From: a plasmid
Sequence record: NZ_CP054002.1
Direction: 5' to 3' (one strand)
Length of the DNA: 64,000 bases
In this document: positions 3,526 to 40,604 of the stretch, in pieces
Layout: each line of letters starts with the position of its first letter
How positions within the stretch are numbered: position 1 is the stretch's first letter
Position numbers and translations under genes: made by a program
The notes under the pieces: generated by a model
Seen by the model: the letters and a program-made list of their open reading frames with translations, nothing else
What the model was told of the DNA's origin: nothing
Database searches by the model: none

Positions 3526-3593
3526 AAATTACAATATTTAACCACAAAATTTTTGCTGTTTTAAATATTTATTTGAATTTGCATTCAATATAA

Positions 3594-3614
3594 CGAACCT
3601 TTTTTTAAACTGAA
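3594..3614. repeat. 21-bp terminal inverted repeat (IR) of tra module copy A, left end: CGAACCTTTTTTTAAACTGAA
   Basis: Perfect inverted match to 20555..20575; same IR at 41415..41435 and 58379..58399. Confidence 0.85.
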
Positions 3615-3615
3615 T

Positions 3616-4179
3616 ATGAGATTATTAAAATTAACTTTATTACTAGTGTTATGTGCATGTACACATAGTGTTTATGCACAACGGCATTATGTAGGTATTT
3701 CAGCCCTAGAAGTAAACTATGGATTGAATATTTTTGGTAGGAATAATACTAACTTAAACCTTTCAGTATCAAAGTATAGGAGTCGAACAACTTACTGGAA
3801 AATAGGTTTGAACTATTTTGAAAAGTCTTATAACTACAGTTATGAAAGCAATACTGCGGAAGTTCCAACGATAGTTTCTTTTAGCTCTACAGCAAAAGAT
3901 TACTATATTGATGCTGCTTATTTCAAAACAGTTGCGACAAATCTTTCTTCACTTATTTTAGCCTAGGTCTAGGTCTTTTTACAGGTGTAGAAGCGTACAA
4001 GAGGCAGGATAATAAGTATGATTTCTTACTTGGTTTAAAGATCGAGCCTGAATTAGAATACTTTGTATCTCCACGAGTTGCGATACTTGGACGTGTTAAG
4101 CAGTATTGGAGTCCGTTTAGCTATGCAAGCAAATGGAATACAGTCTGGAATCTTGGTGTTAAAGTCCTTATTTATTGAT
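3616..4179 (+). pseudogene. outer-membrane beta-barrel-like protein with signal peptide; frameshifted here, intact 187-aa version at 57814..58377
   Basis: ORF 3616..3966 matches the first 115 aa of the copy-B protein, then changes frame; the intact copy has the C-terminal ...VKVLIY aromatic end typical of OM beta-barrels. Confidence 0.5.
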
Positions 4180-4364
4180 TATGATATTATTATCAGCTGA
4201 TGTAAGCGCATTGATTGACTTATTCAAACAATGTGGCGAAATGCTAGCCGGTGTCGGATTTGTCTGTGCAGGTCTTGCGGTTATAAAAAAATAATAACTA
4301 ATCATGAGAAAATGAAAGAAGCTATAATTACGTATATCGTTGCATTAGTAATATTTATACTAAT

Positions 4365-12001: not shown

Positions 12002-12180
12002 TGATAATTGATATACTTAATTTTATGGTAGCTGTAGCTACTGTATTTTTGGCTTATAGGTTCTTTATAGAACGCTCTAAAGGGAAAAAGATAGCAGAAA
12101 TGAAAGTACTGATGTATAGTTTAATATCTTGTTTCGTTCTGCTTTGGATTATAAATATTTTTATTGGTTTTGTAAAATGA
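12001..12180 (+). CDS. 59-aa small membrane protein, translationally coupled between traM and traN
   Basis: ATG overlaps the traM TAA (TAATG) and its TGA overlaps the traN ATG (ATGA); C-terminal TM helix (YSLISCFVLLWIINIFIGFV); identical copy at 49811..49990 (-); just under the 60-aa track threshold. Confidence 0.4.
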   Translation: MIIDILNFMVAVATVFLAYRFFIERSKGKKIAEMKVLMYSLISCFVLLWIINIFIGFVK

Positions 12181-13259
12181 AAACATTGCTTTTTATATTA
12201 ATCATGTTTTGTGTTCCATTCTCCATTTCTGCACAGGAAAAAAAAGAACTGGACTCCCAAACAATTTATGTTTCGTTTGATAAAACGAAACATATAGTAC
12301 TTCCTGCACAAGTAAGTGACATTTCGTATGGTCGTGAAGATTATGTAAAAGTGGAACGGGTGGATAATGTTCCTAATGTTGTCCGCATAACGGCACAGGA
12401 AGAAGATTTTTCAGGAACGACAAACCTTATCATAGTTTGTACAAACGGGAATGTCTATTCTTATAAAATATCCTATCTGTTACCGGGAATGACGGATCAC
12501 TGCGGAAATATCGTATATGCCGGTGATGTGGATAGATCACGTTGTTATAACGTAATAGTCAATAATAACAATACTACAGAAATGTTTTTTCCAGCAGATG
12601 TGTTATATCTGAAACAAGGAAATGAAGAAGTTTTCGGGGTTGAGTATTATAATAATATGGTTAAAGTTGGTACAACTTTTGATGCCTTTGAACCTTCTAA
12701 TCTGTTTGTTATCGATAAAGATCTGAATACCTATGAAATTACCTTGTTTAAAGACCATGCTCTTACTTACTCTTACAACTTTGACGATGGTCGCAAATAT
12801 ATTGCACACATTGATGTAAATAGCATAGAGATGGATAATCTTATCAATAAACTGCACTATAAAAAGCGTAATATCTTCAGCTTGGGAGTTATAAAAAATA
12901 AGTTTGAGATGTCCCTTGCAAACCTATATGTAAAAGATGATTTCATGTTTTTGTATTTGATATAAAAAACTTCTCAAATATAGATTATGACGTTGATTTT
13001 ATTAAATGCTTCCTTCGTGATCAGAAGAAGGTTAAGAACTCTATCCAGCAGGAAGTTCCGTATGATCCGGTAGAACAAAAAGACTTTGATAAAAAGATAT
13101 TGGGCAAAAGCCAAAATCGCTTTGTCCTAGCATTCAATAAGTTCACTATCCCGGATGATAAGGTTTTTGAGATCGAAATGTTTGAAAGAGGTGGGGGAAG
13201 GCATATGAAATTATCTATATTGAATGAATATATATTGTCCGCTGAATTATTAAAATAAT
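12129..13259 (+). CDS. traN: TraN-like protein; frameshifted in copy A (ORF 12129..12965), intact 376 aa in copy B; likely true start at 12177 (MKTLLFILIMFCVPFSISAQE)
   Basis: Signal peptide, size ~360 aa, position after TraM. Confidence 0.55.
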
Positions 13260-13263: not shown

Positions 13264-15075
13264 ATGAAGCTACAAGAGGTTCTAACAGAATATCAATATA
13301 ATAATGTCGGGCAATTTAGGGCGATTGCGGAAAGTTTAGGTTACAAAGAAGCCTATAACAAGGGTTCTTTGCTTTTTACCCGGAATGACGAAGTATTTCG
13401 TATCGATATGGATAAGATACGTTCACACACAAAGCGAGAACCGGATTTATCTGCGGAAAAGGCTTCTATGGATCGTGTTTGCCAGTTCTTTAATCGGGAT
13501 CAGGCTTTATCTCCCGACTATAAAAGCGTATTAAAAAATGAAGGGGTTGATATTGTTAACTGGGGTGATCTAAAAAATGATGCCAAAGATCGTTTTACTG
13601 TGATCGATCATAAAAATAAAATCTGTTATACCGGAAAAGAACTATATGAGTATGCTTTGCAAAATGGTTACTCGTTAGACGGGAAAGGCACAAAGTTAGA
13701 GAAGGGTGTATTATCCGGATTAATGGATATCAATGGTAAACCAGCTAAAGTTCGGTTGCATGAACACGGTACTTCTATTATATATAGGAAGGAAGCGTTA
13801 ACCATACCGGATCGCATTTACGGAAAGAAATTATCGAAGCAACAGAAGCAAGATCTACTTGATGGCAATGTGATAGTCTTGTCAACAAAAAAAGGAGATA
13901 TACTTCTTCAGGTCGATAAGGATCTCAACGCTGTGGTGGTACGTTCGGAAAAAGAATTGTCTGTTCCTGCTAAAATTGGAGATTACGAATTGACCGCAGC
14001 AGATAAGTATCTTTTAGCGAATGGTCATTCTTTAGATAACAAAATGATCCACACTCCTGAAGGTTACATAATTACAGATATAGCTATGCTTCCGGATAAG
14101 AAAGGATATGCTTTCTCAAACATCCAGAAAATATCGGAAACAAAGGCACAGCAGATTTTACAGGCAAGAGAAATGGCAAAGGATAAAGAGTATCTTAATG
14201 ATAAGCTAAAGGATATGCAGCGTACCGGAAAAATCGATATAGACGAGTTGAAGGATAAAAGGTATGAGCAATTAATAAACAGCCATTTTGCCACAGAACA
14301 TAAGGAATACCTATCTTATCTGAAAGATGAAAATCCGGATAAAAACTATAATTATGATCTTGAAGCACGCATTAGGTTAAAGGCTGGGGATATGTTAGAA
14401 AAAGAAGGAATAATCGCCAAAGGTACAACTGAAAAGGAATTGAAAGAAGAAGGCTTTAAAGTCGAGAAGATCCGGGAACAATATCAGGAGAAAGTAACGG
14501 GTAAGGATCCTGTTCCTGATCGAGATCTTGACAAGGAGTTAAGAGAAGCCGTTGTCAAGAATGACTATGAAAAAATAGCTAGTTTGAAAGAGGAAGGTTA
14601 CAAGCCTTCAGAGGAAGTTATTAGAGGTTTGGGACAAGATACAAAGATTGATCAGACGCAAGCTATCGTTATAGAAAAACTATTTGGGATGAAACCTGAA
14701 GTGCAAAAAGCGGAAGAAGTAACACAAGCAAAGGAAGAATCCAAAGAAGCAAAGGTAGAGCTTAATGCTGATCCTGCTAGTGCTAAGGTTTCTCCGGAAC
14801 TAGATAAAGAATTTAAAGAAGCAGTAGAGAAAGGCGATTTTGTAAAGATGTCACAACTGAAGGAACAAGGCTATCAACCTTCCAAAGAGTTGATTCAGTC
14901 TTTGAATGAAACTGCATCTGGCAATACGATGATAGCCGTTCAGAAGATATTTAATCTGAAAGGCTCTGCTAATACGCTCGGAGATGTTAAGCTAGCACAA
15001 GGTCAACAAAGTGCAGAAAAAGATCTAAAGCGTCCTCTCGCCAATACGGTAAATAAAATGTTTGCCGATTTATAA
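13264..15075 (+). CDS. 603-aa conjugative-element protein with two tandem copies of the shared ~55-aa C-terminal module
   Basis: Repeat 1 (...KNDYEKIASLKEEGYKPSEEVIRGL...IVIEKLFGMK) and repeat 2 (...KGDFVKMSQLKEQGYQPSKELIQSL...MIAVQKIFNLKGSANTLGDVKLAQG). Confidence 0.7.
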   Translation: MKLQEVLTEYQYNNVGQFRAIAESLGYKEAYNKGSLLFTRNDEVFRIDMDKIRSHTKREPDLSAEKASMDRVCQFFNRDQALSPDYKSVLKNEGVDIVNWGDLKNDAKDRFTVIDHKNKICYTGKELYEYALQNGYSLDGKGTKLEKGVLSGLMDINGKPAKVRLHEHGTSIIYRKEALTIPDRIYGKKLSKQQKQDLLDGNVIVLSTKKGDILLQVDKDLNAVVVRSEKELSVPAKIGDYELTAADKYLLANGHSLDNKMIHTPEGYIITDIAMLPDKKGYAFSNIQKISETKAQQILQAREMAKDKEYLNDKLKDMQRTGKIDIDELKDKRYEQLINSHFATEHKEYLSYLKDENPDKNYNYDLEARIRLKAGDMLEKEGIIAKGTTEKELKEEGFKVEKIREQYQEKVTGKDPVPDRDLDKELREAVVKNDYEKIASLKEEGYKPSEEVIRGLGQDTKIDQTQAIVIEKLFGMKPEVQKAEEVTQAKEESKEAKVELNADPASAKVSPELDKEFKEAVEKGDFVKMSQLKEQGYQPSKELIQSLNETASGNTMIAVQKIFNLKGSANTLGDVKLAQGQQSAEKDLKRPLANTVNKMFADL

Positions 15076-15125
15076 TTAATAGATTTTTCCGAAAGTAAAA
15101 ATGTTATCACTTAAAAATAAATATC

Positions 15126-15314
15126 ATGGAAGATTACAACAAATTGGTAGAAAAGAATCAGACTGGAGAGATTGACGATCTTGAATTTTTATTAGCTCAA
15201 GAAGATTTAGCGGCTCTCTACGTTGCGGATATGCAAGCTGAAGGAGTTAGCCCGAATGCGGAAAACGCTGCTGAATGGTTGCTAAAATATGAAAATGAAC
15301 ACCTTTATCAATAA
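15126..15314 (+). CDS. 62-aa acidic hypothetical protein
   Basis: ORF conserved in both T copies; tightly packed before the ardC-like gene. Confidence 0.4.
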   Translation: MEDYNKLVEKNQTGEIDDLEFLLAQEDLAALYVADMQAEGVSPNAENAAEWLLKYENEHLYQ

Positions 15315-15317
15315 GTC

Positions 15318-16628
15318 ATGGATGGTCAGGCAAATGATAAGGCTCTGCAAAAATTTGCGGATCTTATGGTTAAGAAACTTACGGAAGTCGATGCGGATTG
15401 GCATAAACCTTGGTTTACAACAACAGGATATGGATTACCACAAAATATTGATGGGCGTGTTTATAATGGAATCAATTCCTTCATGCTTTTTCTTCTTCAA
15501 GAGGAACGTAGTTTCCAGACACCTGTATATATGACTTTTCCGCAAGCAAAGAAACAAGGGCTTCACATAAACAAAGGAGCATCGGCTTTTCCTGTCCTAT
15601 TTTGGAATTTTATGATTAAAGACGATAAGGGGAATAAAATTTCGATGGATGATTATAAGGCTTTGACTAAGGAAGAGCAGAAAGAATATACCGTTATTCC
15701 TTATACTAAACCTTATCACGTGTTCAATGTTGATCAAACAAACTTTGCGGAAGTATATCCGGAACAATGGAAGGCATTGAAGGATAAATTTAGTTGTCCT
15801 AAATTGAAAGATGAGCAGGGAATGTTTTCATCGCCAGAGTTGGATCACATGATAAAACACGGTACATGGTTATGTCCTATTATTTCTTCTTTCTCTGACA
15901 AGGCTTTTTTTCGTCCTTCAGAGGACAAGATATATTTACCCCTTAAAGGTCAATTCTATACAGGAGAAGGATTTTATAGCACATTGTTACATGAGATGGC
16001 ACATTCAACCGGTATAGATACCCGTTTAGGACGTGAAATGAAAAACATGTTTGGTGATCCCAAATATGCAAAAGAAGAATTAATCGCAGAATTTACCGCT
16101 GCTGTTTCTTGCCGTTCTCTAGGTATCGTTTCCGGAGTCCGGGAAGAAAACGCACAGTATTTAAAAAACTGGCTCGGAGCGATCAAAAAAGAACCTAAAT
16201 TCCTCTATTCCGTATTAGTTGATGTAGGTAAGGCTAGCACTATGATTTTGAATGAAGTCTGCAAGTATGAGTTATTGAAGAAGGAAGAACAGGAAAAGCA
16301 ACAGGAAGAATGCAAGCATATAGAGAATAAAAAAGTAGATGATAGCAAGGATTTTTCTGAAACCCGGAATGATGAAAAATTATCACCAGCTTTTAATATA
16401 GCTCTAGCTGCTGCGCTAGCCGGTTCGTTTAAGGAATTGGTTAACCTAAAGGAGCAGGGATATAAACTGTCTGCAAAGGAACTTGATGCGTTAAAGGATG
16501 CAGATCCGAAAATATATATTGCCGCACAGAATATATTTAATATAAAGTTGGATGATCCTACTCCTTCCCTACAATTTTCCGAATCAAAAAATAAAAATGA
16601 AGTCAAACAATTATCTTTAAATTTTTAG
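15318..16628 (+). CDS. ardC: ArdC-like antirestriction protein: N-terminal ssDNA-binding domain plus HExxH metalloprotease, with the shared C-terminal module
   Basis: N-terminal WFTTTGYGLPQNIDGRVYNGINSFMLF matches the ArdC N-domain signature; LLHEMAHSTG zinc-metalloprotease motif; C-terminal ...FKELVNLKEQGYKLSAKEL... Confidence 0.8.
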   Translation: MDGQANDKALQKFADLMVKKLTEVDADWHKPWFTTTGYGLPQNIDGRVYNGINSFMLFLLQEERSFQTPVYMTFPQAKKQGLHINKGASAFPVLFWNFMIKDDKGNKISMDDYKALTKEEQKEYTVIPYTKPYHVFNVDQTNFAEVYPEQWKALKDKFSCPKLKDEQGMFSSPELDHMIKHGTWLCPIISSFSDKAFFRPSEDKIYLPLKGQFYTGEGFYSTLLHEMAHSTGIDTRLGREMKNMFGDPKYAKEELIAEFTAAVSCRSLGIVSGVREENAQYLKNWLGAIKKEPKFLYSVLVDVGKASTMILNEVCKYELLKKEEQEKQQEECKHIENKKVDDSKDFSETRNDEKLSPAFNIALAAALAGSFKELVNLKEQGYKLSAKELDALKDADPKIYIAAQNIFNIKLDDPTPSLQFSESKNKNEVKQLSLNF

Positions 16629-16631: not shown

Positions 16632-16928
16632 ATGTTTATAGGTCATGTTACGGGTTATCTTGGATCAGATGCCAAGAAAACACAGAAAGGTTATTCATTC
16701 AATGTTTCCACTAAATATAAAGAGGGAAACGAAGAAAAAACGTTGTGGATCTGTTGTTTCTTAAATTACGAAACAAAGGTTGCGGAGTTTTTAAAAACAG
16801 GAACTATGGTTCATGTGTATGGGGAAATCACTGTCGGTATCTTTAAGCGTGATACTGGTGATACAGTCCCTTCAGTAACTATGAGTGTAGATAAGGTTCA
16901 ATTACTCTCTAGCAAGAATAAAGAATAA
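16632..16928 (+). CDS. ssb: SSB-like single-stranded-DNA-binding OB-fold protein (98 aa)
   Basis: Pattern ...TLWICCFLNYETKVAEFLKTGTMVHVYGEI... resembles the SSB OB-fold core. Confidence 0.5.
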   Translation: MFIGHVTGYLGSDAKKTQKGYSFNVSTKYKEGNEEKTLWICCFLNYETKVAEFLKTGTMVHVYGEITVGIFKRDTGDTVPSVTMSVDKVQLLSSKNKE

Positions 16929-18883
16929 TGGAACCAGCAAAGAAGGAATTATCATTTGTCTTTATATTGCTTTCCGTAATAATCGGGGGTGTGATAATCT
17001 TTCAGTGGGTTTTGGTGAATGATCTTTGTTCACCAAGCCCAGCTGTATTATTGCAGTTGGGAAAGTTTTTACGCAAAGCTATTATGTTTCGATTCCTATA
17101 TGTAGTATTATTAGCTGGGTTGGCTTTCCTATTCCCTGTACAAAAGAGAAGAGATGAATCCTTGAAATATGTATATACTGCCACTACATTAATCTTAGCA
17201 ATAGCCCTAATATTAGGCTTCAGTAATGTTCTATCATGGTACAATTTATTAGTTTTTCCGATAGTATTTATAGGATTTACAATACTAGTTATCCAAACAG
17301 CCGGTTTTTACCTTAAACGGCATGTGGTATCTGATAAATCTATCTTTGGTGTATCACATGAAAAATCAGAGTTTTATTTTGATTTTGAAACAGTAGAAGG
17401 AAATCTTAGAATCCATAAGCCACAGCAAAATCTTTATATTGACGGTGGTCCGGGATCTGGAAAATCGGAAAGCTGGATTAAAGGCATCATCTATCAATGT
17501 GCAGAGCGTAACTATGCCGGATTTGTATATGATTGGGAAGGAGATCCTAGTAAACCGGGTTCACCTATTTTGTCCCGGATCGCATACGGTAGTATAGAAT
17601 ATTTTAAGAGAAAAAATGTACCTACACCAGCCTTTGCTTTCATAAATTTTGTAGACATGTCCCGGACGGTTCGTGTTAATGTACTTTCGGAAAAATATGT
17701 CCCTAAAGGAAGCGAATCCTTGTTTATTCGTAATATCGCTACTACCTTAATGAAAAACCTTGAAAGTTCATGGAAGGAAAAAACTGATTTCTGGGCGAAC
17801 AATGCGATTAACTATGTATATTCAATTGCTTATAAATGTTACAAAGAACGAGCAAAGGGAATAGGAACTTTACCCCATGTAATCGCTTTTGCATTATCAG
17901 ATAGTGATCTGGTCTTTAAATGGCTCTCTGAGGATGCGGAAATTGCGCTAAACATGTCTTCCATGTTAACCGCATGGCGTTTAGGCGCACAGCAGCAGAC
18001 CGCTGGTGCGGTATCTTCCGCACAGACTCCGCTTGTTTTGCTTAACAATAAATACATCTTTTGGGTTCTATCACCACTTCCGGAAGAAGAATATTCACTA
18101 GATATAACTAATCCGGATCATCCTACACTATTGTGTATAGGCAATGCTCCTTCAATTAAAGAAGCTGTATCTCCTCCTGTTAGTTGTATCGCTAGCGTTG
18201 TCATGTCGCAAATGAATAATCCCGGCAAACAAAAGAGCGTTTTTATGGTGGATGAATTTCCAACGGTAAATTTGCAAGGTATAGATGTATTTATAGGTAC
18301 AGCACGTAAACACAATGTAGCTACAATCTTAGCCGTACAGGACTTTAATCAAGCAATCCGGGATTATGGAGAGAAAAGTGCAAATATCCTGCGATCTTCT
18401 TGTGGTAGCCAAGCCTATGGAATGACCGGTAACGAAAAGACAGCAAAGGATCTAGAAAATCTTTTGGGAGAAACGAAAGAAGCACAGGAATCGTTCTCAC
18501 ATCAAGAATCCGGTACTGGAAGCATGACCGAATCTCTGCAAAAGGAGAAAGTAGTAAAGGCTCGTGAAGTTGCCGGACAAAGTGTTGGTCACTTCATCGG
18601 AAAGGTCGCTGGCGGAAAACCACCTTATTTTAATACACAATTTAATATGTGTAAGTTTATAGATAAGGATATTCCGGCTTTTTCCAAACCTGTAAATTTG
18701 GGAGATGGCAAAGAAGAATTAGAGTATGATATAATGGAAGAAATAGTTAGTCAACATTATCTTTCAATCATTTCAAAAGTAAATGCGATCTTGGAAGATG
18801 TAAAGAATAAGACAGAAACGGACAATAAAAATAAGGAAAAAAACATGCCGAAAGATCATAATCATAAGGCATGGAAGGAATAA
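16928..18883 (+). CDS. type IV coupling protein (VirD4/TraG/TraD family, 651 aa)
   Basis: N-terminal TM helices, P-loop GGPGSGKSES, Walker B-like FMVDEFP; identical copy at 43107..45062. Confidence 0.8.
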   Translation: MEPAKKELSFVFILLSVIIGGVIIFQWVLVNDLCSPSPAVLLQLGKFLRKAIMFRFLYVVLLAGLAFLFPVQKRRDESLKYVYTATTLILAIALILGFSNVLSWYNLLVFPIVFIGFTILVIQTAGFYLKRHVVSDKSIFGVSHEKSEFYFDFETVEGNLRIHKPQQNLYIDGGPGSGKSESWIKGIIYQCAERNYAGFVYDWEGDPSKPGSPILSRIAYGSIEYFKRKNVPTPAFAFINFVDMSRTVRVNVLSEKYVPKGSESLFIRNIATTLMKNLESSWKEKTDFWANNAINYVYSIAYKCYKERAKGIGTLPHVIAFALSDSDLVFKWLSEDAEIALNMSSMLTAWRLGAQQQTAGAVSSAQTPLVLLNNKYIFWVLSPLPEEEYSLDITNPDHPTLLCIGNAPSIKEAVSPPVSCIASVVMSQMNNPGKQKSVFMVDEFPTVNLQGIDVFIGTARKHNVATILAVQDFNQAIRDYGEKSANILRSSCGSQAYGMTGNEKTAKDLENLLGETKEAQESFSHQESGTGSMTESLQKEKVVKAREVAGQSVGHFIGKVAGGKPPYFNTQFNMCKFIDKDIPAFSKPVNLGDGKEELEYDIMEEIVSQHYLSIISKVNAILEDVKNKTETDNKNKEKNMPKDHNHKAWKE

Positions 18884-20554: not shown

Positions 20555-20575
20555 TTCAGTTTAAAAAAAGGTTCG
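20555..20575. repeat. 21-bp terminal IR of tra module copy A, right end: TTCAGTTTAAAAAAAGGTTCG
   Basis: Perfect reverse complement of 3594..3614. Confidence 0.85.
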
Positions 20576-20644
20576 TTATATTGAATGCAAAATTCAAATA
20601 AATATTTAAAACAGCAAAAATTTTGTGGTTAAATATTGTAATTT

Positions 20645-23897: not shown

Positions 23898-23953
23898 TAT
23901 AAAATGAAATCCTCAATAAATGTTTAATGAAGAATTAAAATCCTCGTATTATA

Positions 23954-24541
23954 ATGAAGATAGGATATGCACGTGTATCGACTCCGGATCAGAATCCAGC
24001 TTTGCAATTGGAAGCATTAGAAAAGGCTGGTTGTGAGAAAATTTATCAAGAAAAAAAATCAGCGTTTAAAGAACGTCCTGAATTAATCCGGGCATTAGAA
24101 GATCTTAGAACTGGGGATATCTTATATGTCTGGTCGTTGGATCGTTTAGGCAGATCCATGAAGGAAATCCGGACGAATGTAGATCTAATAATGAATAAGG
24201 GAGCGCATCTTGTCGATGTAACGCATAATATCGATACGTCCACTCCTTCCGGGAAACTTTTGATCCCGATATTTTCAATGTTGGCAGAAATCGATCAGGT
24301 TTTACGTACAGAAAGAACGGTTGCAGGTTGGGAAGTCGCAAAACGTGAGGGAAGAACAGGAGGAAGAAAGCCCGGCTTAAATGATTTAGCGAAAAAGAAA
24401 GCCGAGCAGGCAAAGAAAATGTATCTGTCAAAAGATCCCTTCTATTCAGCAAAAGAGATCGCTTCAATTCTCAATATCTCCACGAGAACTTTGTATAAAT
24501 ATTTGCGTTCTGTTGGGGTTGAACCAAAACAAAACCAGTAA
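23954..24541 (+). CDS. serine recombinase (resolvase/DNA-invertase family, 195 aa)
   Basis: N-terminal catalytic motif GYARVSTPDQ..., C-terminal HTH (ISTRTLYKYL). Confidence 0.85.
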   Translation: MKIGYARVSTPDQNPALQLEALEKAGCEKIYQEKKSAFKERPELIRALEDLRTGDILYVWSLDRLGRSMKEIRTNVDLIMNKGAHLVDVTHNIDTSTPSGKLLIPIFSMLAEIDQVLRTERTVAGWEVAKREGRTGGRKPGLNDLAKKKAEQAKKMYLSKDPFYSAKEIASILNISTRTLYKYLRSVGVEPKQNQ

Positions 24542-26589: not shown

Positions 26590-26898
26590 ATGAAAGAGAA
26601 TAGAACTAAAGTTATTCGGGCACGTCTTTCTGAAGAAGAAAAGGAACAGGTTTTCAGACGAGCTAAAGCTGAAGGTGTAACACTTTCTATGTATTTAAGA
26701 AAATCTGTTTTAGGGGAAAGGATAACTTCAAAAGCGGATATTCAAACCGTCTTTGAACTGAAAAAAATAGGTACTAATTTGAATCAACTTGCAAAGCATG
26801 TTAACTCTTTACCTGTTGATGAAAATATTCGTCTTTCATTGGAAAGTATAGAGATGTACATTAAAGAGTTGAAGCAAATAACAGATAAACTAATATGA
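26590..26898 (+). CDS. mobA: MobA/MobC-type relaxosome accessory protein (RHH-like, 102 aa)
   Basis: Small basic protein overlapping the relaxase start by 4 bp. Confidence 0.55.
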   Translation: MKENRTKVIRARLSEEEKEQVFRRAKAEGVTLSMYLRKSVLGERITSKADIQTVFELKKIGTNLNQLAKHVNSLPVDENIRLSLESIEMYIKELKQITDKLI

Positions 26899-28313
26899 TA
26901 GCGGAGATACAAGACCCGTTTGTAGGAGAAGCATTAAACCGTAAAATCGATTATCAGTTAAAGAAGATTGAAAGCGGTGTAGCTAGGGAATTATATAATT
27001 CTTCTGGTGATTCTCTTATTAATATGTATCGTAATATGTCCCTTGTTGCTGGTCTGAATGATCGTGTGAAATCACCATATATAGAATTTATTCTTAGCAG
27101 CCCGATAGGGGAGGATCTTCCGGACGAAAAGTTTTCTGAAGTAGCGAAAGAATATTTGGAAAGAATGGGATACGGTGATTCTTGCTACACCATCATAAAG
27201 AACGATGATAAGGACCACCGACATGTACATATACTTGCCACTACGATAGACTTAAACGGCTTGTGGATCTCTGATAGTTACAGCAAGGGACGTTCTGGAA
27301 AGATCATGCGAGAGCTAGAGCTTAAACATGGGCTTGAAGTTATGGAGAAAGGAAAGTCTTCCCGGAACAAGACGTTGGGAGAATCCCAGTACCGGCAATA
27401 TTTCTTTGACACAGCTTTGCACAAGGCTTTGCGCAGCCATAATGCAAAAGAACGGGTGAAGGATCTTCTAGGGCAGTCGGAAACCTTTAAAACGATTAAT
27501 CCTGATATGACTAAGGCTTATACTAATGCGGAATGGAAAATCATATTGGGGGAAGATACATACGAAAATATGTTAGATATGTTATCAAAAGGAAAGTTCT
27601 TTAATCCATTACTCAAGGACGAGTTACTTTCCGTCATGGATCGTTTGCGTCAGGAATGCGGCAACATGAAAGAGTTCCGGGATCGATTGGAAAAAGAAGG
27701 GTATTATATGCGTCTGGTATCGGACAAGGGGAAATCTCATTATGTATATGGCATTCCTGATAGGGGCTTTTATCTGAAAGATACAGCCCTTCCGGAATCG
27801 TACCGGTTTGGGAAACTTTTGTTCGCCGGAAAACAAATGACCGCAGACGAGCAAAAGCATTATCTGTATAACCAGATCTTTGCAGTTCTTAATGGTTCAT
27901 CCAGCTATGAAGATTTTAAAGACCGGCTAGCGGAGCATAATATAAATCTGATCGAGCACGTCAACGGTAAAGGGATATACGGCATATCCTTTGCCCTTAC
28001 AAATGTCGATACTCCGGAAATCTTTAAAAGCTCTGATGTATCAAGGAGATTAACCTATCAGAACATACAAGACTTCTTCCAAAAAGAGCAGAATCCGGAA
28101 CAGGGAAAAGAACAGGAGAGAGCAACACCCATCGATCCGGTTATCGTGTGTTATGCGAGTAATCCGCACGAATGGGAGAAGGATCTTATCTATATGTACC
28201 CGGTTGCCATGTCAATGGCTTTAGATAACGGATCAGGGAAGCACCGGAAAGGTGATGAAGATCTTCCGGACAACAAGAAAAAGAAAAAGCGAAATAAAGG
28301 ATTATCATATTAA
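26895..28313 (+). CDS. mobB: relaxase / mobilization nuclease (MobB-like, 472 aa)
   Basis: Histidine-triad motif KDHRHVHILATTIDLNG in the N-terminal domain. Confidence 0.75.
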   Translation: MIAEIQDPFVGEALNRKIDYQLKKIESGVARELYNSSGDSLINMYRNMSLVAGLNDRVKSPYIEFILSSPIGEDLPDEKFSEVAKEYLERMGYGDSCYTIIKNDDKDHRHVHILATTIDLNGLWISDSYSKGRSGKIMRELELKHGLEVMEKGKSSRNKTLGESQYRQYFFDTALHKALRSHNAKERVKDLLGQSETFKTINPDMTKAYTNAEWKIILGEDTYENMLDMLSKGKFFNPLLKDELLSVMDRLRQECGNMKEFRDRLEKEGYYMRLVSDKGKSHYVYGIPDRGFYLKDTALPESYRFGKLLFAGKQMTADEQKHYLYNQIFAVLNGSSSYEDFKDRLAEHNINLIEHVNGKGIYGISFALTNVDTPEIFKSSDVSRRLTYQNIQDFFQKEQNPEQGKEQERATPIDPVIVCYASNPHEWEKDLIYMYPVAMSMALDNGSGKHRKGDEDLPDNKKKKKRNKGLSY

Positions 28314-30158: not shown

Positions 30159-30485
30159 ATGGCAATGGAAAAGACACAGCGAAAACAGTCCCTAAACTGC
30201 TTGTCAAACACTCCTAAGCTGTTTGACCTAAACGAACTACTAAGCTCGCTCAAGATCACACCCGGACAAATGGAGAACATGAAAGGGTTGATATACATCG
30301 AAGGGCTGACGGAAAAGCAAGTACGCCAAAGATTAAGCCATGCAAAGATCATCAGAACAAATAAATTCGGGGTTAATTCCTGCCTGTATTATATCCTCTT
30401 TGAGGATGTAAAGGGGAGATATTTGTGCCTGTTTAACGGTGACAGGGAATGTTTCAGAGCGTTGTTTTTCAGTATTCACCTGTAA
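30159..30485 (+). CDS. 108-aa hypothetical ORF in the ermF upstream region; may be a remnant
   Basis: ORF track only; a terminator-like hairpin plus T7 run (30088..30125) lies just upstream. Confidence 0.25.
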   Translation: MAMEKTQRKQSLNCLSNTPKLFDLNELLSSLKITPGQMENMKGLIYIEGLTEKQVRQRLSHAKIIRTNKFGVNSCLYYILFEDVKGRYLCLFNGDRECFRALFFSIHL

Positions 30486-30495
30486 GAAGTTACTA

Positions 30496-31296
30496 ATGAC
30501 AAAAAAGAAATTGCCCGTTCGTTTTACGGGTCAGCACTTTACTATTGATAAAGTGCTAATAAAAGATGCAATAAGACAAGCAAATATAAGTAATCAGGAT
30601 ACGGTTTTAGATATTGGGGCAGGCAAGGGGTTTCTTACTGTTCATTTATTAAAAATCGCCAACAATGTTGTTGCTATTGAAAACGACACAGCTTTGGTTG
30701 AACATTTACGAAAATTATTTTCTGATGCCCGAAATGTTCAAGTTGTCGGTTGTGATTTTAGGAATTTTGCAGTTCCGAAATTTCCTTTCAAAGTGGTGTC
30801 AAATATTCCTTATGGCATTACTTCCGATATTTTCAAAATCCTGATGTTTGAGAGTCTTGGAAATTTTCTGGGAGGTTCCATTGTCCTTCAATTAGAACCT
30901 ACACAAAAGTTATTTTCGAGGAAGCTTTACAATCCATATACCGTTTTCTATCATACTTTTTTTGATTTGAAACTTGTCTATGAGGTAGGTCCTGAAAGTT
31001 TCTTGCCACCGCCAACTGTCAAATCAGCCCTGTTAAACATTAAAAGAAAACACTTATTTTTTGATTTTAAGTTTAAAGCCAAATACTTAGCATTTATTTC
31101 CTGTCTGTTAGAGAAACCTGATTTATCTGTAAAAACAGCTTTAAAGTCGATTTTCAGGAAAAGTCAGGTCAGGTCAATTTCGGAAAAATTCGGTTTAAAC
31201 CTTAATGCTCAAATTGTTTGTTTGTCTCCAAGTCAATGGTTAAACTGTTTTTTGGAAATGCTGGAAGTTGTCCCTGAAAAATTTCATCCTTCGTAG
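30496..31296 (+). CDS. ermF: 23S rRNA (adenine-N6) methyltransferase ErmF (MLSB resistance), 266 aa
   Basis: Protein from MTKKKLPVRFTGQHFTIDKVLIKD... matches ErmF as recalled; SAM-binding LDIGAGKG; the track start at 30439 is an in-frame upstream Met. Confidence 0.9.
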   Translation: MTKKKLPVRFTGQHFTIDKVLIKDAIRQANISNQDTVLDIGAGKGFLTVHLLKIANNVVAIENDTALVEHLRKLFSDARNVQVVGCDFRNFAVPKFPFKVVSNIPYGITSDIFKILMFESLGNFLGGSIVLQLEPTQKLFSRKLYNPYTVFYHTFFDLKLVYEVGPESFLPPPTVKSALLNIKRKHLFFDFKFKAKYLAFISCLLEKPDLSVKTALKSIFRKSQVRSISEKFGLNLNAQIVCLSPSQWLNCFLEMLEVVPEKFHPS

Positions 31297-31508
31297 TTCA
31301 AAGTCGGGTGGTTGTCAAGATGATTTTTTTGGTTTGGTGTCGTCTTTTTTTAAGCTGCCGCATAACGGCTGGCAAATTGGCGATGGAGCCGACTTTTAGC
31401 ACAAATGTTGAATAGAATTACTAATCTTCAACATTGCACAAAAGTTCAATAGAAGTACTTCACCGGCTCTATTGCCAATTTGTTTGTTATGTGCCGTTTT
31501 ATTCCATT

Positions 31509-32675
<1,167 letters not shown>

Positions 32676-35842: not shown

Positions 35843-36766
35843 TTATACTTTCGGAAAAAATCTGTGTTTAGATACTTTTTCTGTGTTTAATCCTAGTTCT
35901 TTGCTATCGCTTTGGGCTAGTTTGATGTTGCTTAATCCGGGAGCATCAGAGGGCAGACCGAAGATCTTCTGGACTGCTATCATCGTTGGAGCCGGTGCGG
36001 ATCCTTTCAGGTTGTTTATCGCTTCCGGAGAAGGGATATATCCTTCATCCTTTAGGAAAGAGATCTGTGCAAAGTCATTTTTTTTTATGGCAAGAAAAAA
36101 GTCTTTTTCTTTTAGATATTGATCTACCATTTCTTTTAAATCATCTTTTACTAATGACCAGTAGTTACCCTTGAAGCAATCTATTCCTTCAGGTGATTCT
36201 TTTACAGAATCTATTTTTTGAAACCCATTTAATATACCTTCCTCTGTAACACTCCATTCGTTCCTTTTTATTCCCCAGTCGATCATATCTTTGAATGAAT
36301 ATTTTTCATTTAGTTCGTGGATATCCCAAAAGTCTTTTTGTCTTGGTTCTTCTTCTGTAATGGCAGATAGTTTCATGGCTGCTATTTCCCGTATGTCTGC
36401 TATTCGTATGTGGTCGATTTCTTGTATGGGGAAAATAAATTTTTCAGTATAGAAAAAATCGACTTTAATTTTGTCTATAGGGGAGTCCCCCATGTATAGT
36501 GTATATCCTAAAGCTGATGTGTCCAGAGAATCTGTATTCTCGGAATATGGAAAACTCCTTTGAATAAACTCTTTCATTTCTTTTGTATTCATGGTTCCAT
36601 AATCTATATCAGTGAATAAATCTATGTCAATAGATCTTCGATGTCCTAGTTGTAGGCTCAAACAGGTTCCACCTATAAGCGTGAAATCTTTAAAAATAGG
36701 ACTATTGACCAGCTTTTGCAGAGTTTCTTTTAATAAAGGAGAAACAGTTTCATAATGTAAGTTCAT
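35843..36766 (-). CDS. AbiEii/DUF1814-type nucleotidyltransferase fused to the shared C-terminal module (307 aa)
   Basis: NTase motifs LIGGTCLSLQLGHRRSIDIDLF; C-terminal ...KKNDFAQISFLKDEGYIPSPEAINNLKGSAPAPTMIAVQKIFGLPSDAPGLSNIKLAQ... Confidence 0.65.
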   Translation of the reverse strand: MNLHYETVSPLLKETLQKLVNSPIFKDFTLIGGTCLSLQLGHRRSIDIDLFTDIDYGTMNTKEMKEFIQRSFPYSENTDSLDTSALGYTLYMGDSPIDKIKVDFFYTEKFIFPIQEIDHIRIADIREIAAMKLSAITEEEPRQKDFWDIHELNEKYSFKDMIDWGIKRNEWSVTEEGILNGFQKIDSVKESPEGIDCFKGNYWSLVKDDLKEMVDQYLKEKDFFLAIKKNDFAQISFLKDEGYIPSPEAINNLKGSAPAPTMIAVQKIFGLPSDAPGLSNIKLAQSDSKELGLNTEKVSKHRFFPKV

Positions 36767-37311
36767 AGAATGTATTTTTGATAGTTATCGTTTCTTGTGT
36801 TACTATTCCATTTGTTTTTTATGTTGGGAATGACTTGTTTTATGGTTTCTATTCCATAGAACCGAATAATCTCCTTGATCTCGATATCGTTGCCATATTC
36901 AAAAGCCCGTTGTATAACCCATTCCTTGTTCCTTATCCAATTTATCTTATCTATTCGTGTGTCCCAAAATAATCCTTTACTTAGTTTAGATAAGTCAGGA
37001 TGTTTCTTTCGCTCTTCTTTCATTATGAAGGTATATATGTCATGGTTGGCTTGTATTTTAAAGAAAAAGCCTTCAATGTTTATGTTTAACGCTTTTTCTA
37101 TTGAAATGGAGGCTTTTATAGTGAATTTTCGTTCCCCTTTTATATAGTCACAAATACGTTGCGGATATTCATTTGACATATGCGCTAACTTTTTTTGAGA
37201 TATATTCCTTTTTTTAAGGATTACATCCAATATCTTACCTGCCGGAACATCTTCCATTGACAAGTATTTTTCATATTTTATATTCATAGGACTATAATTT
37301 TGTTTTGGCAA
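36763..37311 (-). CDS. HTH (XRE-like) protein, putative cognate antitoxin or regulator of the downstream NTase (182 aa)
   Basis: HTH ...ISQKKLAHMSNEYPQRICDYI...; 4-bp overlap with the NTase gene. Confidence 0.5.
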   Translation of the reverse strand: MPKQNYSPMNIKYEKYLSMEDVPAGKILDVILKKRNISQKKLAHMSNEYPQRICDYIKGERKFTIKASISIEKALNINIEGFFFKIQANHDIYTFIMKEERKKHPDLSKLSKGLFWDTRIDKINWIRNKEWVIQRAFEYGNDIEIKEIIRFYGIETIKQVIPNIKNKWNSNTRNDNYQKYIL

Positions 37312-37365
37312 AAATAATGACTCTTAATACAATAACCAAATTTGGTTATTGTTATTTTGGAAAAA

Positions 37366-38643
37366 TTATAATGCCTGCTCAATATTTTTCCCGATTGTTT
37401 GCCTATCATTTTGGGCTAGCTTTATGTCGCTTAGTCCGGGAGTATCAGAGAGCAGACCGAAGATCTTCTGGACTGCTATCATCGTTGGAGCCGGTGCGGA
37501 TCCTTTCAGTTCGTCTATTATTTTAGGGGAAGGGATATACCCTTCATCCTTCAGCCCGGCGATCCGGGTAAAATCGTTTTTTTTTATGGCATCTTGGAAC
37601 TCACATTCCTTGCCTTTTGATATGGATGCTTGTAGATCATCGTTCCAATCACTGTTTACCGATAACTCCACGTTAGGCAGTTGAAGAACTTTATCCTTCA
37701 GTTCTTCAACTGGCAGACCTTCAATATTGGGTAACTCTTGACCTTTTAAGAATGTATCTAGCTTCAGCGCATATTTATAGCCGTTGCTATCATTGTCAAA
37801 TATATAAGTAACCTGATCGGTTATATTATTAATATTTTGCTTTGACAGGAGCAGCTTTATAACGCCCATTTGTCCCTGTGTGATGTTCCCTTCAGTGCTG
37901 ATATATAAGATGTTCTTTTCGGTATTCAGAAGCTTCATTTGATAATGGGACGCAGCATCGATCATGCTTTCACTGATATATATATGCTCTATTGGTCTTG
38001 TCTTGTCATGCTTAGACACTACGATACTATCGTATTTGTTGCCTGATATGCCTTTGAAGCTCTTGCCGTCTTCAGGTCTTATCCCCCTTTGGGAAATACC
38101 CTGAAAGCCGTTTTGGTTAATAAGTCTGGTACAGGTATTATTATAGACTTTTCCATCTTTCCGGTGTTCCCTAGAGGTGAATACCCCGGAAAATACCGGT
38201 GAAGATAGTGTATCTTGAGTAATTCCTCTCTTTTGCAAGAAATCCCCTTGATAGGGTTTCAGTTGGCTGTTCAGGAACGCCAGCTGATTAGGATCTAGTT
38301 TTGCGTTGCTAACTCCAAACCGGCTATCTTGAGATAATACGACTTCTTTATTGTTTACATAGTTCTGAACGGCTTCCCCGGCTTCTCGCAGGCTAGGCAT
38401 TCTCCCGGTCTGGTCGTAGATATGCTTCTGCATTAGATCTATGATAGTCTTTCCTCGTGCTTCTCCGTGAACGTCCCAATAGGTATAGTAATCCTTACTA
38501 TTCTTCTTGATAATAACGGTATCGGATCCGTTGCTCATCTTAGGGGACGAGTTGGAAGATCCGGAAACAAACTTCCAGCCTAAATAGAGAAAAAACTCCG
38601 GAAGGGAAACATCCCTTTTCAGTTTGTCAAAGTCTACTTTCAT
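37366..38643 (-). CDS. Toprim-domain protein (primase/topoisomerase-like) fused to the shared C-terminal module (425 aa)
   Basis: Toprim-like acidic motifs (YISESMIDAAS ... IFDNDSNGYKYA); C-terminal ...KKNDFTRIAGLKDEGYIPSPKIIDELKGSAPAPTMIAVQKIFGLLSDTPGLSDIKLAQ. Confidence 0.6.
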   Translation of the reverse strand: MKVDFDKLKRDVSLPEFFLYLGWKFVSGSSNSSPKMSNGSDTVIIKKNSKDYYTYWDVHGEARGKTIIDLMQKHIYDQTGRMPSLREAGEAVQNYVNNKEVVLSQDSRFGVSNAKLDPNQLAFLNSQLKPYQGDFLQKRGITQDTLSSPVFSGVFTSREHRKDGKVYNNTCTRLINQNGFQGISQRGIRPEDGKSFKGISGNKYDSIVVSKHDKTRPIEHIYISESMIDAASHYQMKLLNTEKNILYISTEGNITQGQMGVIKLLLSKQNINNITDQVTYIFDNDSNGYKYALKLDTFLKGQELPNIEGLPVEELKDKVLQLPNVELSVNSDWNDDLQASISKGKECEFQDAIKKNDFTRIAGLKDEGYIPSPKIIDELKGSAPAPTMIAVQKIFGLLSDTPGLSDIKLAQNDRQTIGKNIEQAL

Positions 38644-38647: not shown

Positions 38648-39865
38648 TCAGATTTTTAGGTTATTACTTTTATCTTTACCTAGCCCTACATTATCGCTTT
38701 GGGCTAGTTTGATGTTGCTTAATCCGGGAGCGTCAGAGGACAGACCGAAGATCTTCTGGACTGCTATCATTGTTGGAGCCGGTGCGGATTTTTTCAGCTC
38801 GTCTATTATTTTAGGGGAAGGGATATACCCTTCATCCTTCAGCCCGGCGATCCGGGTAAAATCGTTTTTTTTTATTGAATCTGAAAAAATAGAATCGGTT
38901 ATTTGTTGCTGTGTTCTTATGATGATAGGATGATCCTGTATGTTATTCAGGATCTCCTTATCAGAAAACAAAAGATCCGGCTTATATTTCCCAGCGTAGA
39001 AGTTTGACAGGTACAGTTCCTCTGAAGGCTCTAATTTCATTAGCGAAGATACGAAATCAGCCACCTTATCGTTGATCTCCTGCATGGGATATTTTCCGCT
39101 GTTGGTATGCATCATCGGAAGTAGCTGCTGCCTTATCTCCGTAAAGGTCACATTCTCTATGCTTTGTTTTGGATCAGCCTTTAACATTTCCTTATTCTCC
39201 GGATTGCCAAGAGAAGAGTAAAAAACAATGGATTTCCTTAAAAGATCCCTTTCTTCTTTGCTCGTCAATATATCAGAGGATGCAAGGGAGAAGAGGTCAT
39301 ATATATCTCTAGGCTTACATCTTTCATAGAACGCCTTTATCTTTCCTGCAAACAATTCGATAGGATTGACGTAGTTTACTACAAATGAAGTCTTGTTCTC
39401 TCTGATGAAGGGAAACTCAATAGATTTAACTTCCGGTTTGAATATATGGGATCGATTATGATAGTTTATATCTAGTTTTATCTTATCTCCGCTTCCTGTC
39501 ACCGTATTATAGTGCAAAGAGAGAGAATCTAGGGTAAAATTACTTCTTTCGGTCTTCCTATACCCGTTCTGCTGGAAATAGCTATCTAAAGCCTTGTTGA
39601 TTTGTTCTCTCTCCGCTAACATATCCTCTTTAGATACGTTTTTAGAGAAATCAAGATCCAGATCGACAGAAAGCCGGGGAAGATCGAAAACAAGCAGGTT
39701 TATAGCCGTTCCCCCCTTCAGTAACAATTTACCGCTAAACTCCGGCTGATTGTTAAGGTCATTGAGGATATTGGATAATCGCATAACTTTCTCTATTCCA
39801 GCAACCGTAAAATTATTTTCTTTTGCTAGTCTAGTGATTTCTTCTTGTGTATAATCAAAACTCAT
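38648..39865 (-). CDS. AbiEii-type nucleotidyltransferase toxin-like protein fused to the shared C-terminal module (405 aa)
   Basis: LKGGTAINLL...RLSVDLDLDF NTase signature; same C-terminal module. Confidence 0.65.
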   Translation of the reverse strand: MSFDYTQEEITRLAKENNFTVAGIEKVMRLSNILNDLNNQPEFSGKLLLKGGTAINLLVFDLPRLSVDLDLDFSKNVSKEDMLAEREQINKALDSYFQQNGYRKTERSNFTLDSLSLHYNTVTGSGDKIKLDINYHNRSHIFKPEVKSIEFPFIRENKTSFVVNYVNPIELFAGKIKAFYERCKPRDIYDLFSLASSDILTSKEERDLLRKSIVFYSSLGNPENKEMLKADPKQSIENVTFTEIRQQLLPMMHTNSGKYPMQEINDKVADFVSSLMKLEPSEELYLSNFYAGKYKPDLLFSDKEILNNIQDHPIIIRTQQQITDSIFSDSIKKNDFTRIAGLKDEGYIPSPKIIDELKKSAPAPTMIAVQKIFGLSSDAPGLSNIKLAQSDNVGLGKDKSNNLKI

Positions 39866-40604
39866 AATATACTCCTTTCTCTATTTCTTTCATTACATCT
39901 TTAGGCGCACATACATTCCATTCCTTGAAATAGGTATCACAACGGGAAGGATTTGTAAGGTAACTTGTTGTATTACCCATCTTCTTTTTACATACATCGA
40001 AGAACATATCCGATAGGTTTAGTTGTTCCTGAAGCTGGGACAGGATGAATCCTGTACGTTGATACAGGCTTTTCTTTTGGTATAGCTTCAGGCATTCTAA
40101 CATATCTTCTTCTATTACGGAATCCGGATCAACCTCGATTAAGGCAAATAACAGTTCTTCAATGCCACCGGCTAAGCCTATATTGTTTAAGCAGTCAATT
40201 ATGGTTTGGCTGATTGATGTAACCGTGATAGGATAGCCGGTATCTTTTTTTGTAACCAATGGTTTGTATATAAACTGCAAAGGCTTATATACATAACGCT
40301 GGTTCAGGTACTCAAAAGACCGGAAGGGAGTAGAACTGTGCACATAAAGCCAGTTAAATTCCTGTGTCTGTAACATATAGAACTCTAATGCAGAATGATA
40401 AGCTAGGCAACCATTATCAACGGAATTGCAAGCTATCTGATACTTGTTCTGTATGTTAGCCGGCAAATATACTCCCCGGCGAATATGTGATAACAAACCT
40501 CGCTTTTTCCAGTTGTAAAGACGGGATTTCATGGTGTTATATCCTACTGGTTGATCTATGCTTATCATGCCTGTTTCTTTATATTTAGATATTATATTAC
40601 TCAT
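39855..40604 (-). CDS. AbiEi-like antitoxin/transcriptional regulator (249 aa)
   Basis: Directly upstream of the NTase gene and overlapping it by 11 bp, as in abiEi-abiEii operons. Confidence 0.5.
   Translation of the reverse strand: MSNIISKYKETGMISIDQPVGYNTMKSRLYNWKKRGLLSHIRRGVYLPANIQNKYQIACNSVDNGCLAYHSALEFYMLQTQEFNWLYVHSSTPFRSFEYLNQRYVYKPLQFIYKPLVTKKDTGYPITVTSISQTIIDCLNNIGLAGGIEELLFALIEVDPDSVIEEDMLECLKLYQKKSLYQRTGFILSQLQEQLNLSDMFFDVCKKKMGNTTSYLTNPSRCDTYFKEWNVCAPKDVMKEIEKGVYYEF

Follow-up and report, generated by a model that had tools for sequence, protein, structure and literature searches.

What does it mean when proteins with unrelated N-terminal parts, encoded on one plasmid, all end in the same short sequence? 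The question is raised by a 64,000-nt stretch of the plasmid of sequence record NZ_CP054002.1 (below, "the window" stands for this whole stretch), in which five open reading frames (ORFs) carry a common C-terminal module. A preliminary description of this DNA, made from the sequence alone, had read the module as a candidate recognition or translocation signal for the coupling protein of a conjugative type IV secretion system (T4SS), or else as a shared docking domain. This reading was partly supported by our analysis, and each check made here that could have refuted it turned out in its favour. The module, the tail that follows it and the free C-terminus may together form a portable recruitment or translocation tag for a Bacteroidetes-type conjugative T4SS, a reading for which we hold the arguments to be evenly balanced.

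A common C-terminal module in five proteins of the window

Translation of the five ORFs confirmed that they share a C-terminal module of about 70 amino acids (aa). The carriers are a 603-aa DUF3945-family protein (13264..15075, plus strand), an ArdC-like protein consisting of an ArdC-N domain and a zincin metallopeptidase (15318..16628, plus strand; Pfam ArdcN 3.9e-29, MPTase-PolyVal 5.5e-31), a primase-like Toprim protein of 425 aa (37366..38643, minus strand; Pfam Toprim_2 6.7e-6) and two AbiEii-family nucleotidyltransferases (NTases), NTase-307 of 307 aa (35843..36766, minus strand; Pfam AbiEii 2.1e-16) and NTase-405 of 405 aa (38648..39865, minus strand; Pfam AbiEii 6.6e-26). The carriers had been described as five unrelated proteins; the shared C-terminus was upheld, but because both NTases belong to the AbiEii family, the N-terminal parts represent four unrelated families and not five.

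A hidden Markov model (HMM) built from six module copies was searched against the six-frame translation of the 64-kb window and matched the tagged ORFs alone (E 1e-27 to 1e-64; next match E=0.24). Two of the six copies are arranged in tandem in the 603-aa protein: the internal copy a (aa 419-486; 14518-14721, plus strand; HMM 5.9e-29) and copy b (aa 510-582; 14791-15009, plus strand; HMM 2e-35), which together with the conserved tail and the extreme C-terminus ...RPLANTVNKMFADL spans 14791..15072 (plus strand). Single copies were located in the ArdC-like protein (aa 355-425; 16380-16592, plus strand; HMM 6.1e-27), which ends ...KQLSLNF, in NTase-307 (aa 219-290; 35897-36112, minus strand; HMM 2.6e-35), in the Toprim protein (aa 345-415; 37399-37611, minus strand; HMM 3.2e-37) and in NTase-405 (aa 323-393; 38687-38899, minus strand; HMM 1.6e-36). 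Six copies is also the number reported before for these five ORFs, but the whole window holds nine, since the genes of the 603-aa and ArdC-like proteins are duplicated on the minus strand. The second 603-aa gene copy (46915-48726, minus strand) lies in inverted repeat I1 (100% identity) and has the same translation, with modules at 47269-47472 and 46981-47199, and the second ArdC-like gene copy (45362-46672, minus strand; module 45398-45610) is identical to the first.

Two copies, that of ArdC and the internal one of the 603-aa protein, have diverged far more than the consensus motif printed in the preliminary description implies, with 28-32% identity to the NTase copy. In pairwise BLASTP comparisons between carriers, the alignment was confined to the C-terminal 60-90 residues. 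The Toprim protein aligned with the 603-aa protein twice (2e-16 and 4e-8), corresponding to the two module copies of the latter, and the ArdC-like protein aligned with NTase-405 at the C-terminus only (3e-5).

Folded core, tail and free C-terminus

In an AlphaFold2 model of the module, built on a 32-sequence alignment, residues 2-15, 19-27, 34-43 and 46-56 of the segment form four helices. The predicted local distance difference test (pLDDT), averaged over blocks, was about 84-92 from the end of the first helix through the fourth, and 45-54 over the tail. The model suggests a small helical stub of four helices that is weakly ankyrin-like. In the AlphaFold2 model of the full-length 603-aa protein, N-terminal alpha/beta domains (aa 1-290) and a helical linker precede the two tandem modules, which are arranged as beads on a string. 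Four helices were seen at residues 422-474 in copy a, the helices of copy b lay at residues 511-562, segments 481-508 and 567-592 were disordered, and a terminal helix was formed by the last 11 residues (592-602). Foldseek comparison of this full-length model with the PDB gave nothing significant (best E=9e-3, TM 0.07).

The size of about 55-60 aa given previously applies to the folded core of about 55 aa, but the conserved unit was found to be larger, adding a tail motif of about 15 aa and a constrained extreme C-terminus. In an alignment of 42 sequences of the DUF3945 family, with identities to the window protein down to 42%, residues D574, V575, K576, L577, A578, R590, N597, F600, D602 and L603 were conserved to at least 90% or invariant, the invariant ones being L577, F600 and L603; the C-terminal motif of the 603-aa protein is RP-x-x-T-x-N-x-x-F-x-D-L. 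Terminal copies in the other cargo families retain L-x-(D/N)-(I/V)-K-L-A-Q, and internal module copies, including copy a, lack the KLAQ tail motif.

Of 60 cluster representatives, 51 (85%) have a hydrophobic last residue (L, I, M, F, V, Y or W), compared with 11 of 36 other coding sequences of the same plasmid (Fisher p=1e-7, a value that overstates independence because the cluster representatives are related to one another) and 36% of 208 unrelated ORFs of the same loci. The trend holds across different cargo families. This pattern of conservation argues that the disordered tail is under selection. The tag therefore has three parts: the folded core, the linear motif and a free C-terminus under constraint.

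Comparison with known protein families

Profile searches of Pfam, NCBIfam and PDB sequences identified no characterised domain that covers the module. Six isolated modules compared with Pfam-A gave noise only at E<=10, no NCBIfam model lay over the module in the full-length proteins, and the best match in a PDB-sequence profile search with the module was at E=0.31. The suggestion that the module corresponds to a database domain of unknown function (DUF) proved wrong: the one DUF3945 (PF13101) match in the 603-aa protein lies at aa 174-206, away from its modules at 419-486 and 510-582, and the other four tagged proteins have no DUF3945 match.

Several other identities were also rejected. No Ank family fell on the module even at E<=10, so that it is not an ankyrin by sequence. 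Derivation from a pair of DUF4116 repeats received an hhalign probability of 0.7%, with the sub-threshold DUF4116 matches lying upstream of the tag. Likewise, none of the known LPD profiles falls on the module, LPD23 matching hundreds of residues upstream of the tag. No description of the tag was found in the open-access literature searched. Judged from these searches and from the predicted fold, the module is an unannotated structured family. Its net charge of -5 to 0 (neutral to acidic) appears unlike that of a nucleic-acid-binding domain.

Tagged proteins in public sequence data

A word-indexed protein search with a 72-aa profile returned 36 short fragments and no architectures, and an exhaustive HMMER search of 1.84 billion cluster representatives was used instead. 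It detected 114 proteins at E<=1e-3, of which 51 at E<=1e-10. In nearly all full-length matches, the last module ends 10-55 aa from the C-terminus; P0060, P0105 and some short ORFs or fragments depart from this. Of the 108 complete tagged ORFs in 90 loci, all but one have a tail of 1-30 aa after the module, and the DUF3945 family always carried two tandem modules. The census of N-terminal domains proposed earlier placed the module at the C-terminus of diverse cargo of conjugative elements.

A Pfam scan of the 66 matches of about 200 aa or more assigned the cargo to DUF3945 (23/66), ART-PolyVal (5/66), LPD23 (5/66), AbiEii (4/66), DUF4116 (3/66), Toprim_Crpt (3/66), ArdcN together with MPTase (2/66), and Toprim_2, PBECR5, HipA_C and AAA_14 (1/66 each). 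The N-terminal parts of the carriers fell into separate BLAST clusters as well as separate Pfam families. The largest matches are genuine polyvalent proteins: P0080 (1631 aa) combines ART, PBECR5 and LPD23 with the tag, and P0075 (1424 aa) combines ART and LPD23 with it. The combination of P0075 was also seen in P0090 and P0073. Weak partial matches in P0100 (PG_binding repeats), P0128 (seven partial stretches) and P0136 (short partial repeats) were discounted.

Proteins made of repeats of about 23 aa with the pattern P-S-E-x-V-x-L-A-A-V were observed between traN and the coupling protein gene in two loci (L014 7699-9988 and L045 6986-8164). Two of these repeat proteins end in the tag, and their repeats match DUF4116 below threshold; a third (L014 8975-9988) has no detectable module and ends ...ERLSL.

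Genomic setting and distribution

Two circular plasmids of about 34-35 kb from Bacteroides fragilis, CP103200.1 and CP103219.1, matched the window with 98-100% identity. Their T4SS genes are of the Bacteroidetes-type conjugative kind (TraO, a DUF3875/VirB4-like ATPase, TraM and TraN), and they also encode ParA, a MobA/VirD2-type relaxase with its accessory protein, and two small serine recombinases. TraN (DUF4138; 12129..12965, plus strand; Pfam DUF4138 1.8e-21), annotated as such in CP103200.1, is encoded in the window by the last T4SS structural gene upstream of the tagged genes. Right after traN follow the gene of the 603-aa DUF3945 protein, a small ORF, the ArdC-like gene, an SSB gene and the gene for a type IV coupling protein (T4CP). 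The last is VirD4/TraG/MobC-like (16928..18883, plus strand; Pfam T4SS-DNA_transf, TraG-D_C and TrwB_AAD_bind) and matches NCBIfam Bacteroid_MobC at 5e-76, under the cut-off of that family.

The plasmid SSB (16632..16928, plus strand; NCBIfam PRK06293 5.6e-11, Pfam SSB 1.8e-4) has 98 aa and consists of the OB fold only. Canonical SSBs recruit partner proteins via an acidic C-terminal tail. The plasmid SSB ends ...LLSSKNKE and lacks such a tail, and adjoining tagged proteins end in tails of the ...F-x-D-L type.

The preliminary description had allowed for the module being widespread outside conjugative elements. Wherever there was sufficient flanking DNA, it was found in Bacteroidales T4SS operons or in the cargo region of the same plasmids, and it was absent from 2.9 million viral contigs (IMG/VR). 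The loci examined have one to five tagged genes each, placed either in the interval from traN (DUF4138) to the SSB and T4CP genes or within the cargo region. Runs from traN to the T4CP gene were seen in the window and in L003, L012, L014, L039, L092 and L094. In more distant elements, the runs that follow traN are uninterrupted. That of L014 encodes a DUF3945 protein of 507 aa, a protein of 417 aa, the polyvalent protein of 1631 aa and ArdC; L039 has five tagged genes in a row after traN, and L092/L093 have three in a row upstream of the T4CP gene. Among the 31 loci of at least 15 kb, 25 hold a T4CP 68-100% identical to that of the window, and the other six represent a plasmid cargo region or a contig that ends just before the T4CP gene. 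This distribution suggests that the tag belongs to one family of Bacteroidales plasmids and integrative and conjugative elements (ICEs) with one T4CP lineage.

In species-representative genomes, 10 loci were found, all of a single widespread element present in Bacteroides, Phocaeicola and Tidjanibacter and in one metagenome-assembled genome (MAG) labelled Bacillota. A further 76 loci came from metagenomes, many of them labelled human gut metagenome assemblies. All named host records were Bacteroidales save two. Both exceptions are Bacillota records, L010 (a MAG contig of 4.9 kb) and P0299 (part of a Turicibacter sanguinis protein), and most probably reflect binning errors or contamination instead of true hosts. 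The exact sequences of four of the five tagged window proteins are each present on about 1,000 or more public contigs, labelled "MULTISPECIES [Bacteroidales]"; that of NTase-307 is present on one public contig, and near-identical members of its cluster are common.

An orthologue of the Toprim protein in an element of Phocaeicola plebeius DSM 17135 (L003 14559-15584; 341 aa) stops just before the start of the tag. This cargo is known both with and without the tag, which therefore has been gained and lost on a given cargo. In two loci of the more distant elements, DUF3575, DUF5119 and Mfa-like fimbrial genes were observed after the T4CP gene (L012 11823-17047 and L014 19667-24896); they may encode a mating adhesin or pilus module.

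Recombination through the module-coding DNA

The three adjacent cargo genes for NTase-307, Toprim and NTase-405 have module-coding 3' ends that form a 191-nt direct repeat, D1, with 83-92% identity. Its copies (35905..36095, 37404-37594 and 38692-38882, minus strand) encode the module core. Codon comparison showed that near-identity is limited to this core, with sharp divergence on either side.

Compared with CP103200.1, the window contains an additional stretch of 1.3 kb (36093..37394) with the module-coding repeat at both ends. It comprises the N-terminal part of NTase-307 and the gene of a 182-aa HTH_3 and DUF6922 protein (36763..37311, minus strand; Pfam HTH_3 3.2e-6, DUF6922 2.6e-21). Because this gene overlaps the NTase-307 start by 4 nt, its product is a putative antitoxin or regulator of the cassette. 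BLASTN matches flanking the stretch overlap in CP103200.1 by 196 bp (13488-13683), which correspond to the module-coding 3' end of the Toprim gene, a signature of homologous recombination through module DNA. Judged from this footprint, the extra tagged-toxin cassette entered by recombination within module-coding DNA. The chimeric tagged ORF P0087 and a stand-alone tag ORF of 95 aa after hipA in L013 also point to recombination through module DNA.

On the latter contig (8.5 kb; L013 3234-6818), a chimeric-looking ORF made of a Radical_SAM fragment, HipA_C and the tag was observed near an HTH_3 gene and a full hipA; no T4SS genes were found on the contig. This arrangement may be debris of recombination through tag DNA.

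Other features of the window

A 249-aa protein encoded at 39855..40604 (minus strand; 11-nt overlap with the NTase-405 start) is, by its position, a putative AbiEi-type partner, and it had no Pfam or NCBIfam match. A MobA/VirD2-type relaxase and a NikA/MobC-like accessory protein are encoded at 26590-28313, the relaxase ORF being 26895-28313.

The window has the layout X'-Y-X-Y'-X, in which Y (about 17 kb) is the T4SS half, present in both orientations, and X is the cargo and relaxase half. Segment Y includes the genes of the 603-aa protein, ArdC, SSB and T4CP; the second copies of the SSB gene (45062-45358, minus strand) and the T4CP gene (43107-45062, minus strand) lie in the inverted repeat. 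The 23-bp sequence TTCAGTTTAAAAAAAGGTTCGTT was present at all four X/Y junctions in alternating orientation (3592-3614, minus; 20555-20577, plus; 41413-41435, minus; 58379-58401, plus), near the small serine recombinase genes at 23939-24538 (plus strand) and 40741-41340 (minus strand). One full unit of the window corresponds to 20555-58378 (37,824 bp). Either a multimer has captured an invertible T4SS segment, or long reads from a population of mixed orientation were mis-assembled. The inverted Y copies differ by single-base indels only (e.g., the arm break at 12948-12952), which look like homopolymer errors of long-read assembly. One 1-nt indel truncates the first TraN copy at 12965; TraN of CP103200.1 extends to the start of the 603-aa gene.

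Relative to CP103200.1, an insertion of 2.8 kb (30475-33260) carries erm(F) (30439-31296; 612 bits) and tet(X) (31509-32675; 861 bits), both over the curated cut-off, and no insertion sequence element was found within the inserted stretch. All three window copies lack a 410-bp segment (3870-4279) that in CP103200.1 lies immediately upstream of the recombinase gene; the gaps are at 23906/23907, 61720/61721 and 320/321.

A proposed tag for a conjugative secretion system and its alternatives

A recruitment or translocation tag is favoured because such a function fits the strict C-terminal placement and the constraint on core, tail and terminus, and also the early-invasion cargo, the location in T4SS operons, the association with one T4CP lineage and the absence from phages. 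The four-helix core of about 55 aa would serve as a protein-protein docking surface for the coupling protein, or for an adaptor bound to it, and the disordered tail, with L-x-D-(I/V)-K-L-A-Q and the terminal hydrophobic residue, would engage the translocation channel. Tagged proteins would then reach the recipient together with, or just behind, the transferred DNA strand. The delivered set would comprise the DUF3945 DNA-binding-like protein, ArdC, the Toprim primase-like protein, large ART/PBECR5 polyvalent proteins, and pol-beta-type NTase and HipA-type toxins. Each "solo" early-invasion effector would thus bear its own address label, where other lineages fuse the effectors into one polyvalent protein, and the near-identical module DNA of neighbouring genes could act as a homologous-recombination handle for the acquisition of new N-terminal "warheads". 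The data show that the module is portable among otherwise unrelated proteins and has defined boundaries; binding to the T4CP and actual transfer of the tagged proteins are what we infer from this combination.

Some observations weigh against a delivery function. Export of ArdC had been taken as a known fact in the preliminary description, and this is not established: ArdC of R388 acts when made in the recipient, its expression in the donor is of no help, and export is not required (PMC7213743). Tags on the toxins of apparent toxin-antitoxin (TA) pairs are awkward for an export signal, as the toxin would precede the antitoxin in the recipient, and an earlier report that Legionella HipT, a TA toxin, is translocated by a T4SS could not be reproduced (PMC10653801). 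In the relaxase, which is the only T4SS substrate of the plasmid known with certainty, the HMM search detected no module. The mean net charge of the tail is about +0.65, unlike the strongly basic VirB/D4 or Bep signals. Finally, two short contigs (3.7-8.5 kb) encoding tagged HipA-like or AAA_14 proteins contained no T4SS genes. A more elaborate version, in which the tag is at the same time a T4SS delivery label, a recombination handle for warhead swapping and a means to inject toxins (AbiEii NTase, HipA-like kinase) ahead of the antitoxin genes, seems unlikely to us; under it, a recipient that destroys the plasmid or fails to establish it would be poisoned, amounting to an "establish-or-die" counter-defence.

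The main competing explanation, which we consider possible if doubtful, is that the module is no secretion signal but a docking or assembly domain for one common partner, located inside the donor or bound to plasmid DNA. The partner could be the relaxosome, the tail-less SSB on the T-strand or the two-module DUF3945 protein, so that a non-covalent polyvalent complex is formed and transfer takes place by piggy-back or not at all. Such a role fits the data nearly as well as a tag does: the predicted ankyrin-like helical stub would be a generic protein-binding module, tandem double modules in the DUF3945 family suit a scaffold or bridging protein, the adjoining SSB is without the usual acidic partner-binding tail, and the ...F-x-D-L ends resemble the tail-into-pocket recognition of SSB-Ct and TraD-TraM. 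Evidence from operon position and lineage applies equally to both. Docking alone, however, leaves unexplained the placement as last domain, the 85% of hydrophobic C-termini and the loss of the tail motif in internal copies, and proteins usually tolerate docking domains at either terminus.

It is quite unlikely, in our judgement, that the module acts in the recipient by targeting the enzymes to a conserved Bacteroidales factor or site, such as a restriction or defence complex, the replisome or the DNA entry site, and is shared because they work at the same place. BID domains serve both as signals and in host-side roles, and host targeting is thus compatible with a tag; on its own, however, it needs neither a strict C-terminal position nor a constrained free C-terminus, and the module co-occurs with one T4CP lineage and not with a host clade, which recognition by the machine explains equally well or better. 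Least probable of all we hold it to be that the shared sequence has no dedicated docking role, being a recombination handle at the DNA level, a remnant of cassette shuffling, or a C-terminal degron. The three adjacent copies with 83-92% DNA identity and sharp boundaries, the extra NTase cassette placed exactly between two module-coding repeats, the chimeric or split tagged ORFs (P0087 and the 95-aa module in L013) and the non-polar C-termini, which are classic protease recognition signals, all speak for it. Across elements, however, the module is kept at 28-50% aa identity, with DNA identity too low for homologous recombination; the fold is predicted with confidence and has invariant residues, the helix pattern is kept despite the differences outside recently converted copies, and a degron would not require a folded domain of 55 aa.

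Comparison with known T4SS signals and transferred proteins

The closest parallel to the proposed tag is XVIPCD of the X-Tfe effectors, the folded part of which binds the all-alpha domain of VirD4 and the disordered tail of which is also needed for secretion (PMC8740702). As in the tag, a C-terminal unit of a folded part and a disordered tail is placed on unrelated N-terminal domains. The two differ in that no sequence relationship was found (no Pfam match at E<=10), that XVIPCD has about 120 aa and a Gln-rich tail, whereas the tag has about 70 aa and a tail that is not Gln-rich, and in the machine, which is a chromosomal bacteria-killing VirB/D4 system for XVIPCD and a Bacteroidetes-type conjugative T4SS for the tag. 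The XVIPCD cargo consists of cell-wall toxins with immunity proteins, that of the tag of anti-defence and establishment enzymes. The BID domain with its basic tail, found in Bartonella Beps and some relaxases, is another portable, bipartite C-terminal T4SS signal made of a small helical domain and an unstructured tail. Different from BID, the tag has no BID Pfam match, its tail is not strongly basic, and the relaxase encoded here is untagged. Dot/Icm and VirB/D4 signals and the TraD-TraM interaction depend on the extreme C-terminus, as in RalF, which has hydrophobic residues close to its end, and in TraD, whose terminal Phe inserts into TraM. The Dot/Icm and VirB/D4 C-terminal signals are short, degenerate and without a folded domain, whereas the tag has a domain before the tail. 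By analogy, the tag is best classed with the C-terminal T4SS substrate-recognition domains like XVIPCD and BID, and it would represent such a domain in a T4SS lineage without a reported one.

With respect to cargo, the closest known group is that of the polyvalent proteins. Iyer, Burroughs, Anand, de Souza and Aravind (2017; PMC5512222) name ArdC-N, MPTase, ART and PBECR as polyvalent-protein domains, give DnaG/Toprim primases and pol-beta NTases as particular to the conjugative type, and interpret the polyvalent proteins as delivered with the DNA; the tag was not found in the passages of their paper that were searched. The tagged proteins resemble them in domain repertoire (ArdC-N, MPTase, ART, PBECR, LPD23, Toprim primase, pol-beta NTase and kinase) and in their T4SS-adjacent setting, and they differ in that most domains are here solo proteins, each with the same C-terminal tag. 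RP4 TraC1, the ColIb/R64 Sog primases and pSa ArdC, cited in those passages (PMC5512222) as reported to be transferred in conjugation, belong to the same functional classes as the tagged Toprim and ArdC-N plus MPTase proteins, but are untagged. Translocation of plasmid proteins by conjugative T4SSs is also described in two other articles (PMC8406263, PMC11288057).

Significance

No such signal was found in the Pfam, NCBIfam and PDB-sequence libraries or in the open-access literature searched, and the T4SS type concerned is a very prevalent one. Should the module turn out to be a docking domain only, it would still define a structured family without annotation and point to a hub interaction of these plasmids. 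If it serves as a delivery label, the proteins that Bacteroidales conjugative elements send into their recipients could be read out by a simple profile search. Such a label would explain how solo anti-defence proteins are co-delivered without polyvalent fusion, it would raise the idea that TA toxins are used offensively in conjugation, and it would offer a handle for engineered protein delivery between gut Bacteroides.

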